Source: a virus | IMG/VR virus record: IMGVR_UViG_3300036900_000025 | Coordinates: 14,955 to 78,954 of that record | Strand: one strand, 5' to 3' | Length of the DNA stretch: 64,000 bases | In this document: positions 1,810-47,342 of the stretch, piece after piece | Position numbering within the stretch: the stretch's first letter is position 1 | Layout: every line of letters begins with the position of its first letter | Notes under the pieces: generated by a model | The model's input: the letters and a program-made list of their open reading frames with translations, nothing else | What the model was told of the DNA's origin: nothing | The model's database searches: none | Translations under genes and position numbers: made by a program

Positions 1810-3174
1810 ATGGGCACCGAAGTCTGGTTTCGGAACCCGGACAACTACGTCCGGGAGCTGGTGGAGTGTGCTCAGGGAAACATCTGCTTCGATCGAGGCT
1901 ACCTCATCAAGCGGAACATCGACGTTCAGAAGTGGGCCGCACTGTACTATGGTGCAGGCCTGAGCTACCGGCTCCTGACTGTCGGTTCGCAGGGTACCGC
2001 CGAGTACCGTCCCGGTTCTGACGATCCTGTGGCGGTCTACCCGACGTGGGCTTACGGCGAAGACTGGGCGATGCTGGAGGAGATTGTCTCCGAGCCGCTC
2101 GGTGAGAACAAGGAGGTTTGCTTTGACACCTCGATCCCAAAAGACGAGCGACCTGTATTCGGTCAAGAGCACCGAGTTGTCGTCGTCGAGCCCCCCAACT
2201 CGAGTTCGGGCCCAGGGCGTCAGTTCCTCCGCAATCTCAAGATCCTCCAAGAGGACTACCCGGACTGCATCGTCCATATCCACGGCCTCTACGGATACAG
2301 AGCAGCCTTCGGACTAGGTCTGGGTGCTGCCGACGTGGAGCCTCGTACTGCTGCACAGAAGGGCAAGGTTCACCTTCCCAGCGGTGGCGAGGCGAAGTTC
2401 GAGAAGGTCCAGTCGCACGCTCAGTGGGTCACAGCGATGGGCTTCACTCCTGGGGACTTGGCGGTCCCTCGGAACCGCTGCATCTACAACATCAAGGCAG
2501 CGATCTGGGCTGGAAAGCACTACACAGAGCTGATCAACGTGAAGGTGAGAGGCGGAAACGCTACTCCCGACATCGTTTCGTCCGAGGTTGCTCACCGGCC
2601 TGCCGAAACGGTACACGGCTTTAGCCTGCCGATCATCAAGCCGAAGGAAGGCGACAAGTTCGCCTGCGACACCTGCAGTTTGTCCGGTACTTGCAAGCAC
2701 TACCGAGAAGGGGCGGTGTGTAGCTTGCCCGAGTCTGAGTCCCGAGAACTCGCAACACACTTCCAGACCCGTGACAGCGGCCTCATCATGGAGGGGCTCT
2801 CGGAGATCACGAGAATGCAAGCTCGTCGAACCGAGCGCGCCATTCAGATCGAAGAGATCGACGGCGATGTTGACGACAAGGTCACGAAGATGCTCAGCGT
2901 GCTGTTCGATCAGGGCAGCAAGCTGGCGAAGCTGATCGACCCGAGCCTTCGGGCACCGGGCGTACAGGTGAACGTGGGAGCAGGTGGGCAGGCATCTGTT
3001 CAGATTACACCACAGCAGGCAATCGCGGCGATCTATCGTGAGCTTGAGGCTCGCGGTGTTCCTCGCAACGAGATCACTCCCGACATGGTAAAGCAGCTGC
3101 TTGGGCAGATGACGCCACAGCAGTCTCACCGAACCATTCCGGGAGAGATAGAGCGTGGCGAGCAGACCGCATAG
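1810..3174 (+). CDS. Degenerate TGT/DpdA-like barrel + Cys4 zinc module + helical C-terminus; candidate terminase small subunit
   Basis: ICFDRGY, HIHG, AADVEP..AAQKG and R..YNI echo the FLDSG/HxxG/SxDSS/R..N order of phage TGT-like proteins; CDTC-x5-C-x8-C; lies upstream of TerL. Confidence 0.5.
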   Translation: MGTEVWFRNPDNYVRELVECAQGNICFDRGYLIKRNIDVQKWAALYYGAGLSYRLLTVGSQGTAEYRPGSDDPVAVYPTWAYGEDWAMLEEIVSEPLGENKEVCFDTSIPKDERPVFGQEHRVVVVEPPNSSSGPGRQFLRNLKILQEDYPDCIVHIHGLYGYRAAFGLGLGAADVEPRTAAQKGKVHLPSGGEAKFEKVQSHAQWVTAMGFTPGDLAVPRNRCIYNIKAAIWAGKHYTELINVKVRGGNATPDIVSSEVAHRPAETVHGFSLPIIKPKEGDKFACDTCSLSGTCKHYREGAVCSLPESESRELATHFQTRDSGLIMEGLSEITRMQARRTERAIQIEEIDGDVDDKVTKMLSVLFDQGSKLAKLIDPSLRAPGVQVNVGAGGQASVQITPQQAIAAIYRELEARGVPRNEITPDMVKQLLGQMTPQQSHRTIPGEIERGEQTA

Positions 3175-14951: not shown

Positions 14952-14994
14952 TCGGGGTCCATGCTTGCGGGCGTGGACCCCGATGCTGTATGGT
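14952..14994 (+). promoter_or_regulatory. 13-bp hairpin overlapping a putative promoter (TTGCGG-18-TATGGT)
   Basis: tcggggtccatgc / gcgtggaccccga; -10 at 14989-14994. Confidence 0.45.
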
Positions 14995-39888: not shown

Positions 39889-40110
39889 TCACGGCTCCTT
39901 GAACGGGTCGGGTGTAGGGAGCCCGAACGGGCTAGAGAGGCCGGGAGCGTCGGGCGCTGGGGGGTCATCCGGCCCCTCTGTGGCGTCGCGGTGGTCCTTG
40001 ATGTCGTCGGACCACGAATCCAGCCGGGGGATCACCCGACTCAGTGCGATGCCGACGAAGGCGAGCCCCATCGTGACGCTGTAGAGGCCCAGGGCGATAG
40101 CGAGATCCAT
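39889..40110 (-). CDS. Small membrane protein
   Basis: N-terminal TM segment. Confidence 0.6.
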   Translation of the reverse strand: MDLAIALGLYSVTMGLAFVGIALSRVIPRLDSWSDDIKDHRDATEGPDDPPAPDAPGLSSPFGLPTPDPFKEP

Positions 40111-44947: not shown

Positions 44948-45095
44948 ACCTCCCCATGTCCTTATCCTTCTCGGCATCCTCGACGCCGATACGGTGAGCA
45001 TCCAGGTAGACCTCGTCGGCACCGGCTACAGGATCGTAGCCACGGTAGCCGTCCTGCCAGCCCTTGAGGGCAGTGCCTTTGTATTCGTCAGACAT
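44928..45095 (-). CDS. 55-aa hypothetical protein (not in ORF track)
   Basis: MSDEYKGTALKGWQDGYRG... fills the gap, coupled on both sides. Confidence 0.55.
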   Translation of the reverse strand: MSDEYKGTALKGWQDGYRGYDPVAGADEVYLDAHRIGVEDAEKDKDMGRYGSSNA

Positions 45096-45408
45096 CTTTC
45101 GCTACGTCCGTTGCCTTGTCGTAAGTAGCAAGCATCTTCATCTCCCCGTCAGGCCGACGGACCGAGAGCCACACCGGATTGAAGCCTGGTCCGTAGGCTG
45201 CGACCTTAGTGAACTCGTCTATGGCCTGGTCGTCGCAGAGCGGAGCACACGTCGTCTCGATGATGCGAACCTGGTCGTCGTAGTACTCGTATACAGAAGG
45301 CTTCCAACGAGGATCAGCGCCCGGATGCAGACCGTTCGCACCGCCGAACTGCTGGTCGTCAGGAAACTCATGGTCAGGGCCGTCATAAGCACACTCAATC
45401 ACCCACAT
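45088..45408 (-). CDS. Hypothetical protein
   Basis: Coupled ORF. Confidence 0.6.
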   Translation of the reverse strand: MWVIECAYDGPDHEFPDDQQFGGANGLHPGADPRWKPSVYEYYDDQVRIIETTCAPLCDDQAIDEFTKVAAYGPGFNPVWLSVRRPDGEMKMLATYDKATDVAKDV

Positions 45409-45622
45409 CTGTTTCCCCCTCGTCCTCGGGAAAGTCGTTCTGTGCTTGGGTCAGGATGAAGCCACAGATCCAGAGCCCCTCGTGCCTGGTAAAGCCACCC
45501 TTCTTGAGGTGCTCGAAGACGACATGAAGAGCCGTGAAGCCTTCATCTCCTTCGGACATCTCAAGTCCAGCAAGGATCTCATCGGACCTACGGAGCAGAT
45601 CGTCCCTGTCTGGCTCAGCCAT
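45395..45622 (-). CDS. Hypothetical protein
   Basis: AGGAG RBS. Confidence 0.6.
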   Translation of the reverse strand: MAEPDRDDLLRRSDEILAGLEMSEGDEGFTALHVVFEHLKKGGFTRHEGLWICGFILTQAQNDFPEDEGETDVGD

Positions 45623-46583: not shown

Positions 46584-47240
46584 TCAGCCCCACTTCGCCT
46601 TCTCGATACAGGCGGTGCATCCCTCGATGCCGGGGGGACGGAGCATCCGGTCCACGATGGAGACGAAGATCCGGCGCGGCGAGCCGTCGCTATTGAGGCA
46701 GCGCGTGCAGGCGAACCCGAGGAACTGGGGAGGTCCGTCGTTCTCGATGACGTAGGCGTCGTCCAGCCCGTACTCGATCATCTGGGCCTTCTGCTCGTCG
46801 TTCAGGATCACGACGCCCTGATCGTTGAACTCCCAGGGAACTCCGTTCACGCTGATCGGCTCGACCATCGTTCCCTCCAGATCATCAGTGGTGACTGTGA
46901 CTCGGTCCTCGGCCTGTGCGGACTCGTTGGTCTGCGTGGTCGGCGGCGCGTCGTGCTCCAGGAGCGCCTTGGTGTGGTCCTTGCCACACCCCATGCACAG
47001 ACCGCGCCCAGCGAGGAGGCCGGAGCAGATGCCCTCGTAGTAGTTGGCGGCAGCCGGGGCCTGCTTGCGCGAGGAGCCGATCAGGCCGAAGAGCCGACGG
47101 ACGGTGACGAGCTGCTCGTCAGACAACTCCTCGAAGAAGCGGGAGATGTCGTGCCGCGTTGCTTCCATTTCCATCTCCTGCTGCTCAAGCATCTGAGCGA
47201 TCTGAGGCGGCATCGCCGCGAAGAAAGGACCGTCGTTCAT
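46584..47240 (-). CDS. Cys-rich hypothetical protein
   Basis: CMGC, CTRC, CTAC..KAKWG; GGAG RBS. Confidence 0.7.
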   Translation of the reverse strand: MNDGPFFAAMPPQIAQMLEQQEMEMEATRHDISRFFEELSDEQLVTVRRLFGLIGSSRKQAPAAANYYEGICSGLLAGRGLCMGCGKDHTKALLEHDAPPTTQTNESAQAEDRVTVTTDDLEGTMVEPISVNGVPWEFNDQGVVILNDEQKAQMIEYGLDDAYVIENDGPPQFLGFACTRCLNSDGSPRRIFVSIVDRMLRPPGIEGCTACIEKAKWG

Positions 47241-47254
47241 GTATGAGTCTCCGT

Positions 47255-47342
47255 AGAAAAGGTCCGGCCCGGACAGTACACTCTCGGGGGGGTAGCAGAG
47301 TGATTGGAGTCGGGGGGTTATGACTCCCTGTCCGGGCCGGAC
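47255..47342 (-). ncRNA. 6C-like RNA: two C6-7 loop hairpins enclosed by a 15-bp stem, followed by a U-tract
   Basis: Outer stem 47262-47276/47328-47342; inner hairpins ggagtc-ATAACCCCCC-gactcc and cactct-GCTACCCCCCCG-agagtg; CTTTTCT after. Confidence 0.6.

Follow-up and report, generated by a model that had tools for sequence, protein, structure and literature searches.

The 64,000-nt stretch of DNA analysed here (hereafter the window) covers positions 14,955 to 78,954 of the 78,954-bp IMG/VR virus record IMGVR_UViG_3300036900_000025, which represents an uncultured actinobacterial phage from soil with its early and replication genes on the minus strand. In the replication module, beside a helicase gene, lies a gene for a protein resembling single-stranded DNA-binding proteins (SSB), and the 118-nt gap between this SSB-like gene and the following gene is mostly taken up by the RNA element that is the subject of this study (Table 1). 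Along the transcript, the gap consists of the TAG stop codon, 16 nt, a branched structure, a U-rich tail, a GGAG ribosome site and the ATG of the downstream gene at position 47240, located 21 nt from the end of the structure.

A branched hairpin with two cytosine loops

The structure occupies 81 nt (window 47342-47262, minus strand). A perfect 15-bp stem with 12 G-C pairs closes a three-way junction, from which two hairpins with 6-bp stems emerge, separated by 3 nt; the loop of the first contains a run of six cytosines (C6) and that of the second a run of seven (C7). All structures reported here are computed predictions. The 108-nt stretch that we folded reached a minimum free energy (MFE) of -51.4 kcal/mol, compared with -30.3 +/- 3.2 kcal/mol for 200 shuffled sequences, none of which was as good (z -6.5). 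The first 13 nt of the 5′ arm form a palindrome and each arm is palindromic, so we also considered a four-hairpin alternative with self-folded arms, but at -27.5 kcal/mol it is less stable by 22 kcal/mol than the branched fold (-49.1 kcal/mol). Moreover, the complementarity between the arms continues past the palindrome, with a central C facing a G and an additional AG/CU. The C run of hairpin 1 is unpaired with a probability of 1.00 and that of hairpin 2 with 0.99. The preliminary description of this locus, which was made from the letters of the sequence, had reported the 15-bp perfect stem, the two 6-bp hairpins, the C loops and the terminal CUUUUCU, and sequence and folding reproduce this anatomy in every detail.

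The C runs themselves are unusual for this genome. The hexamer CCCCCC is depleted in the window, where it occurs 13 times although 36 +/- 8 occurrences would be expected; three of those found are located inside the element. Two runs of at least six cytosines arose in 0.1% of the shuffles that kept the composition of the insert. The element was invariant among contigs from three soil DNA runs, namely what is probably the source contig itself and two very short, identical pieces from other places.

The G+C-rich hairpin, the U-tract that follows at once and the preceding gene end on the same strand correspond to an intrinsic terminator, of which a terminator consensus scan recognised only the 5-bp self-hairpin of the 3′ arm. 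A consensus scan for promoters, which covered one promoter type (sigma-70-like), detected no site in or near the gap or before the element. It follows that the downstream gene must be transcribed through the hairpin, that any termination at the hairpin can be partial only and that any small RNA from here would be derived from the 3′ untranslated region (UTR). The position that had been described, in the 3′ UTR of the SSB-like gene, holds.

Table 1 Positions of the element, its flanking genes and the CUUCCCC structures of cultured relatives. Coordinates refer to the window unless a locus is named.
Feature	Position	Strand	Details
Outer stem, 5′ arm, GUCCGGCCCGGACAG	47328..47342	-	15 nt; 100% complementary to 47262-47276
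Outer stem, 3′ arm, CUGUCCGGGCCGGAC	47262..47276	-	15 nt; self-hairpin and tail flagged by the terminator scan
Inner hairpin 1, 10-nt loop AUAACCCCCC (C6), 6-bp stem GGAGUC/GACUCC	47306..47327	-	MFE and centroid structures
Inner hairpin 2, 12-nt loop GCUACCCCCCCG (C7), 6-bp stem CACUCU/AGAGUG	47279..47302	-	MFE and centroid structures
U-rich tail CUUUUCU	47255..47261	-	From sequence; moderate U-tract right after the stem, 5 U in 7
SSB-like gene, 347 aa	47359..48402	-	phrog_5686 (E 3e-59), PF23977; element in its 3′ UTR
Downstream gene, 218 aa	46584..47240	-	phrog_7649; GGAG ribosome site at ~47249-47252
CUUCCCC motif	L085:2590-2660, L249:2545-2615, L086:2509-2579, L084:2479-2590 and relatives		From alignment

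Cytosine loops recur in related phages

A megablast search of phage records with the 2-kb region gave no match, and neither did a search of viral contigs that used the SSB-like protein alone; when 18 aligned homologues served as the query, 39 viral or metagenomic loci and 13 regions of cultured phages were obtained. Including the element of the window, these comprised 38 distinct sequences downstream of SSB-like genes. All 38 possess a strong hairpin at most ~100 nt from the stop codon, with the next gene close behind. The hairpin is thus the conserved core of the arrangement, which fits an attenuator or a protector of the mRNA 3′ end. Its stems share no sequence between relatives, and many of the hairpins have no U-tract.

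Unpaired runs of five to seven cytosines were found in nine of the 38 hairpins (the element of the window, L087, L093, L104, L106, L113, L118, L122 and, partly, L115). L087 resembles our element in carrying two C runs and follows the same design of a long stem around a small hairpin. The C-run loops measure 10-17 nt and show recurring 5′ flanks (UAAC6, CUAC7 and AAUC5-6). No unpaired run of five or more guanines was present at the hairpin position; an automatic count gave eight loci with C runs and none with G runs (sign test, p = 0.004). With the perfect-stem hairpins (>=10 bp) of the same loci as a control, a loop with at least five cytosines occurred in 5 of 24 hairpins at this position and in 1 of 39 elsewhere (Fisher p = 0.026). 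Carriers of the trait are spread among several deep clades of the protein tree. The relatives without C runs have simple loops of 3-8 nt or loops of other composition.

The C loops are therefore recurrent and enriched, not obligatory. The preliminary description had made conservation of the loops a test of its interpretation, and C-rich loops indeed reappear here on completely different stems. Given how often cytosine loops are met at the same spot in relatives, they probably serve a purpose of their own. For the role of the hairpin itself they are dispensable, as a plain hairpin lacking C runs is found in about half of even the closest relatives.

One locus, L115, deserves separate mention. 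There, a 14-bp perfect hairpin (2217-2259, plus strand) lies within the coding sequence of the Pro/Ala-rich tail, 50 nt before the SSB-like stop codon, and its loop, CGCUACCCCCCCAGC, is nearly identical to that of inner hairpin 2; a second C-loop hairpin follows past the stop codon. Two sequence-based searches of viral contigs were discarded. The exact 15-mer of the stem arm had 81 unrelated chance matches, and the pattern TAACCCCCC-N12-40-TACCCCCC had at least 119, none of them with both runs in separate hairpin loops, so that these too were chance matches.

A covarying C-rich structure in cultured phages

The cultured relatives, which are ~40% identical, are the Tsukamurella phages TIN2, TIN3 and TIN4 and Gordonia phages of the Monty and GTE7 groups. 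Their gene order matches that of the window, with the SSB-like gene, a gap of 115-170 nt, a gene for a ‘zinc-finger’ protein and the helicase gene. In phage Monty and its relatives, the helicase gene is preceded by this ‘zinc-finger’ gene, with which the gene downstream of our element is syntenic; a tblastn search with the protein encoded downstream of our element gave no match.

In eight of these phages (Monty, Chelms, BenoitCattle, PokyPuppy, Damp, GTE7, GMA7 and Amore2), a helix that we named P1 takes in the SSB-like stop codon. Inside P1 lie a single-stranded CUUCCCC, which is invariant, and a small hairpin, P2, whose loop reads CCNAU; a separate strong terminator follows. Covariation had been proposed as a check in the preliminary description, and the alignment of these eight sequences revealed a covarying helix around the invariant CUUCCCC: 90.5% of the cells are paired, five pairs change on both sides, and compensatory changes occur in both P1 and P2. 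None of 500 shuffles reached the covariation score, and the signal collapsed in slid registers. In TIN2 and TIN3, the CUUCCCC motif appears in a three-way-junction form, and Demosthenes, Mbo2 and Camerico have plain terminators at this place. No Rfam family matches the CUUCCCC/P1/P2 motif.

This comparison of sequences provides good evidence that the cultured relatives have, at the corresponding place, a conserved structure in which a C-rich single strand is displayed. Action of the motif as RNA is suggested by its G-U pairs and by the stop codon that it includes. Its relation to the poly-C loops may be either homology or analogy.

Comparison with 6C RNA

The twin C loops had led to the element being called 6C-like, after the 6C RNA of actinobacteria, which is called B11 in mycobacteria. 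By a published definition, 6C is an ~80-nt stem-loop structure with two loops that each contain six or more cytosines (PMC5014011). The element conforms to this definition, since it has a C6 and a C7 loop within 81 nt and both runs are unpaired with P ~1. To obtain real 6C genes for comparison, we used the published L3 loop of the Mycobacterium tuberculosis 6C RNA as a pattern. These genes fold into two adjacent hairpins with 9-13-bp stems, a closing helix that is weak at most, and energies of ~-50 kcal/mol; their loops are GACCCCCCG (9 nt, C6) and UCCUCCCCCCCU (12 nt, C7). The element shows its loops in the same order and at similar sizes, C6 in 10 nt followed by C7 in 12 nt, and at ~80 nt and ~-49 kcal/mol it comes close to the -49 to -51 kcal/mol of real 6C RNAs. 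The core of its first loop, ACCCCCCG, is the core of 6C loop 1 (gaCCCCCCg), and its second loop has the length and the C7 run of L3, UCCUCCCCCCCU, which is the target-binding loop of the M. tuberculosis RNA (PMC6486639). The actinobacterial host range is a further point in common.

In other respects the two differ. The inner stems of the element measure 6 bp rather than 9-13 bp and have no sequence in common with those of 6C, and a 15-bp stem, which would also act as a terminator, surrounds its hairpins, whereas the 6C hairpins stand side by side. Furthermore, the element resides in the 3′ UTR of a phage mRNA without a promoter-like site, whereas 6C is a chromosomal gene beside Ms1. The Rfam model of 6C (RF01066) is characterised by adjacent 12-13-bp hairpins, conserved stem sequence and the loops gaCCCCCCg and cucUCCCCCCcu, of which the element resembles the loop cores only. 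The Rfam search that had been suggested for this element returned no match: RF01066 had none at E<=10 in the whole 78,954-bp genome (10 candidates scored), and the element did not reach the gathering threshold of 47 bits. As positive controls, the 6C genes of Gordonia (L321 and L276), Rhodococcus (L292), Prescottella (L326) and Mycobacterium (L251) scored 75-88 bits with the same model. At gathering thresholds, Rfam had no match in the window or in 16 related loci. When the window segment 47100-47500 (401 nt) was scanned with cmscan at E<=10, 6C was absent from the matches, the sole row being the Rhizobiales small RNA Atu_C10 at chance level (15.9 bits against a threshold of 60). Atu_C10 is, like our element, a terminator hairpin, with an ACCCCC loop.

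Its short, unrelated stems, strong closing stem and apparent lack of a gene of its own exclude the element from the family, and it is not a 6C RNA. What stands of the original likeness is the display: order, sizes and C-run lengths of the loops mirror 6C, and the C6 and C7 loops are presented, in that order, on an equally stable scaffold. The anatomy would predict that the C runs pair with single-stranded G runs without a chaperone, as described for 6C (PMC6486639). Titration of a 6C partner, which the preliminary description had also raised, is speculation. A WhiB protein search for host genomes gave no match.

Possible targets of the C loops

The C-rich loops of 6C bind G-rich sites, for example in the leader of dnaB and at the panD ribosome site AGGGGGG, and need no chaperone for this (PMC6486639). 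Most ribosome sites of the early genes of the phage are of the GGAGG(U) type; 24 of 64 carry GGAGG and 1 of 64 carries GGGGG. Self-targeting of phage ribosome sites as the main role of the element was rejected for this reason. A G5 ribosome site was detected for a single early gene, which encodes a 106-aa protein (45088-45408, minus strand; GAGGGGGAA; GAGGGGGAAACAG-ATG at 45408-45425) and is the one obvious candidate partner of the C loops within the phage. As the gene starts outside the focal genes came from a crude GC3-based caller, such counts are approximate.

Two further candidates were discarded. The ribosome site of the SSB-like gene itself reads AGGAGA or GGAGC in all relatives and does not match the loops. 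In duplex predictions between the loops and all phage start regions, the top matches needed nucleotides of the closed stem and were not credible, and the rest were unremarkable.

Among the related loci, a G5 ribosome site in a nearby gene was observed at none of 8 loci with C loops and at 9 of 18 without (p = 0.016; a post hoc comparison of small numbers with crude gene starts). This distribution would fit self-avoidance by a C-loop RNA acting in trans. In the sister lineage L109/L112, AAGGGGG ribosome sites are used repeatedly.

The upstream SSB-like protein

The preliminary description had called the gene upstream of the element SSB-like, and several lines agree with this. The protein ends in GELPF, and all 37 relatives examined have an acidic tip of the DDDDLPF type behind a Pro/Ala-rich linker, an arrangement that is a hallmark of SSB tails. 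Four Cys residues are invariant across the homologues. The AlphaFold model contains an OB fold (core pLDDT ~85-90), for which the structural matches included RB69 and T4 gp32 (Z 5.3-5.5, 158-166 residues aligned) and many OB folds of SSB, RPA, CST and PriB, all with modest Z values. Searches of the PDB with the sequence profile yielded nothing below E 0.1, and Foldseek with the model nothing at E<=0.001. Given the modest Z values, we infer from several weak lines, to which the helicase neighbour adds, that the protein may be a gp32-like SSB.

The top structural match was PhiC31 gp3 (Z 7.6, 153 residues aligned), a recombination directionality factor that thus ranks above T4 and RB69 gp32. The likeness may be relevant to integrase-less phages, whose gp3-like proteins are suspected of taking part in replication. 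A 93%-identical variant of the SSB-like protein exists (P0018).

Interpretation of the element

We tentatively favor the view that the element is a terminator or attenuator that is also a display platform for 6C-like, C-rich seeds. The 15-bp G+C-rich stem and the CUUUUCU tail would act as a leaky intrinsic terminator or attenuator and as a protector of the mRNA 3′ end, so that more mRNA, or mRNA with a longer lifetime, would be available for the SSB-like protein, which is needed stoichiometrically, than for the replication enzymes encoded downstream. By clamping the three-way junction, the stem would keep the two small hairpins open and present the C6 and C7 runs as seeds that stay single-stranded at all times, whether they remain on the mRNA tail or are carried by an ~85-100-nt fragment left by 5′ processing. 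The seeds could then pair with G-rich single-stranded sites, for example GGGGG-type ribosome sites or leaders, in the chaperone-free manner of 6C with panD and dnaB. Since the phage genes use GGAGG, the bulk of them are unlikely targets; likelier ones would be G-rich sites of the host or those few phage genes whose ribosome site contains a G run, such as the gene at 45408. With the same reserve, we regard the element as 6C-like in its working yet independently arisen, and not as a captured 6C gene.

Several observations weigh against this view. The inner stems have just 6 bp, and the stem encloses a 51-nt branched insert instead of the short loop (~3-8 nt) of a simple terminator, which together with the interrupted U-tract is atypical of an efficient intrinsic terminator. 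The C6 and C7 runs match GGAGG poorly. Only about one relative in four has a C5+ loop. In the nearest clade the share is about half, the element of the window and L104 having C loops and the sister lineage L109/L112 none. The statistics given above are modest (p 0.004-0.03), partly post hoc and based on MFE predictions, and C-rich, G-poor loops may be mere survivors in the large loops of a G+C-rich RNA. It is also quite possible, if somewhat more doubtful, that the element is a plain intra-operon terminator or attenuator, or an mRNA-stabilising hairpin, whose branched insert and C runs have no function. Large loops would then drift to C and A because a G would pair, and the runs would grow by slippage. 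This accords with the presence of a hairpin in all relatives, mostly without C runs, with the lack of C runs in the sister clade, with the U-rich tail, with the absence of an Rfam family match and with the lack of an evident target among the GGAGG ribosome sites of the phage. It accounts less well for two perfect 6-bp hairpins centred on C6 and C7, an arrangement found in 0.1% of composition-matched shuffles, in a phage genome that otherwise avoids CCCCCC. Nor does it explain why C runs are enriched at this site relative to other hairpins of the same loci and relative to G runs, or why an invariant single-stranded C-rich word is embedded in a covarying helix in the cultured relatives.

Proteins, rather than RNA, could be what the loops attract. 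YC-rich loops might load Rho, the element being a structured Rho utilization (rut) site that aids the weak U-tract, or might bind the gp32-like SSB or a host KH, S1 or cold-shock protein, thereby setting translation or decay of the SSB-like mRNA. Primary sites of Rho bind YC dinucleotides and tolerate an intervening hairpin, as in lambda tR1 (rutA-boxB-rutB), and T4 gp32 controls its own expression at the mRNA. In line with this idea are the C-rich, G-free single strands beside a terminator with an interrupted U-tract, the many relatives whose hairpins have no U-tract and the weak gp32 likeness of the upstream protein. We nevertheless consider it improbable, as two loops of 10-12 nt offer far less single strand than the usual 60-80-nt rut site, gp32-type autoregulation acts on the 5′ leader and not on the 3′ end, and no result obtained here favors any particular protein. 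Still less probable is a processing site of the RNase III type, as in the R-sites between the early genes of T7, at which cleavage would cut the SSB-like message free of the downstream genes, with a hairpin left to protect the 3′ end. With the 15-bp stem and one 6-bp hairpin stacked, there would indeed be about two helical turns, and such a long perfect duplex in an intercistronic gap of an early or replication operon, before a gene with no promoter-like site of its own, is what one would look for; however, the C runs would be left unexplained, and the hairpins of the relatives vary widely in length and shape. We attach the least probability to a signal at the DNA level, that is, a cruciform or single-strand hairpin serving as a replication origin or priming signal, or two 13-bp palindromic operators (GTCCGGSCCGGAC) located 68 bp apart. 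The site does lie in the replication module by the SSB-like and helicase genes, and each arm is a perfect palindrome. Yet the arms are complementary past the palindrome, as expected if they pair with one another, the C runs are always on the sense strand and a U-tail follows at the 3′ end, which fits RNA, and the helix of the cultured relatives includes a stop codon and G-U pairs. Operators were dismissed, as the 13-bp palindrome is absent from the window outside the two arms.

Seen as such a combination of terminator and seeds, the element has partial counterparts among known systems. Like the 3′-UTR-derived small RNAs CpxQ and SroC of enterobacteria, it lies right after a stop codon, ends in the terminator of the gene, has no separate promoter-like site and contains a putative single-stranded seed in or upstream of the terminator region. 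CpxQ and SroC, however, depend on Hfq and RNase E and carry the seed in a linear 5′ part, whereas the seeds of the element would lie in the loop region of the terminator stem, in a host group without Hfq. The Firmicutes RNAs RsaE and RoxS and the alpha-proteobacterial small RNAs with CCUCCUCCC loops likewise expose C-rich words in loops, which pair with G-rich ribosome sites. They are unrelated to the element in sequence and taxon, and their UCCC and CCUCC words suit canonical Shine-Dalgarno sequences, whereas C6 and C7 suit G runs. Finally, strong hairpins between co-transcribed genes are familiar from phage early operons (RNase III sites of T7, attenuators), where they can tune the expression of the neighbouring genes relative to each other and shield the upstream mRNA at its 3′ end, but those hairpins have no conserved homopolymer loops, and a branched twin-hairpin insert is not among their described features.

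A more far-reaching proposal, which we consider unlikely as a whole, is that actinophages have repeatedly evolved functional mimics of 6C in the terminators of their early or replication genes. These would silence G-rich leaders of the host of the dnaB or panD type and stall host replication and division, from which the phage genes with their GGAGG sites would escape; the nine of 38 relatives with C loops and the CUUCCCC motif would then belong to one widespread, undescribed class of phage RNA. Small RNAs of actinobacteria are poorly understood, and 6C is the one conserved across the phylum; it is reportedly essential or toxic on over-expression and reportedly controls dnaB. Our literature search found no published phage 6C-like RNA, and we know of no phage-encoded RNA with 6C-type seeds. 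If the proposal were true, it would add a new kind of host take-over tool and provide a natural experiment on what the 6C loops recognise, for which the cultured phages of Gordonia terrae and Tsukamurella with the covarying C-rich structure (Monty, GTE7, TIN2/3) are a testable system. If the loops proved neutral, C-run loops in actinophage terminators would be no evidence of regulation.

Other C-run hairpins in the phage

Three further hairpins of the early strand show C5-C6 runs, and those of the late strand show none. About 9,600 bases before the window start (L245:830-925, minus strand), a 30-bp imperfect hairpin carries the apical loop UCUAACCCCCGUGAGA (-52.6 kcal/mol, z -6.7). It lies in a gene-free stretch of ~600 nt, at the start of which a terminator-like hairpin and a TTGACA-17-TAGGGT promoter-like site are located, and could be part of a long structured leader or a non-coding RNA. 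At L245:2215-2345 (minus strand), a 15-bp perfect stem carries the loop CUCCCCC. Within the window, at ~39,930-39,990 (minus strand), an 11-bp stem surrounds AUGACCCCCC and a mini-hairpin, a design as in L087. The non-coding sense strand of the early region, taken as a crude set, contains 10 runs of at least five cytosines and 3 of at least five guanines at equal C and G content (p = 0.046). Runs of C6, C7 and C6 are also found on the early sense strand in a 2-kb gene-free stretch ~5,900-3,800 bases before the window start.

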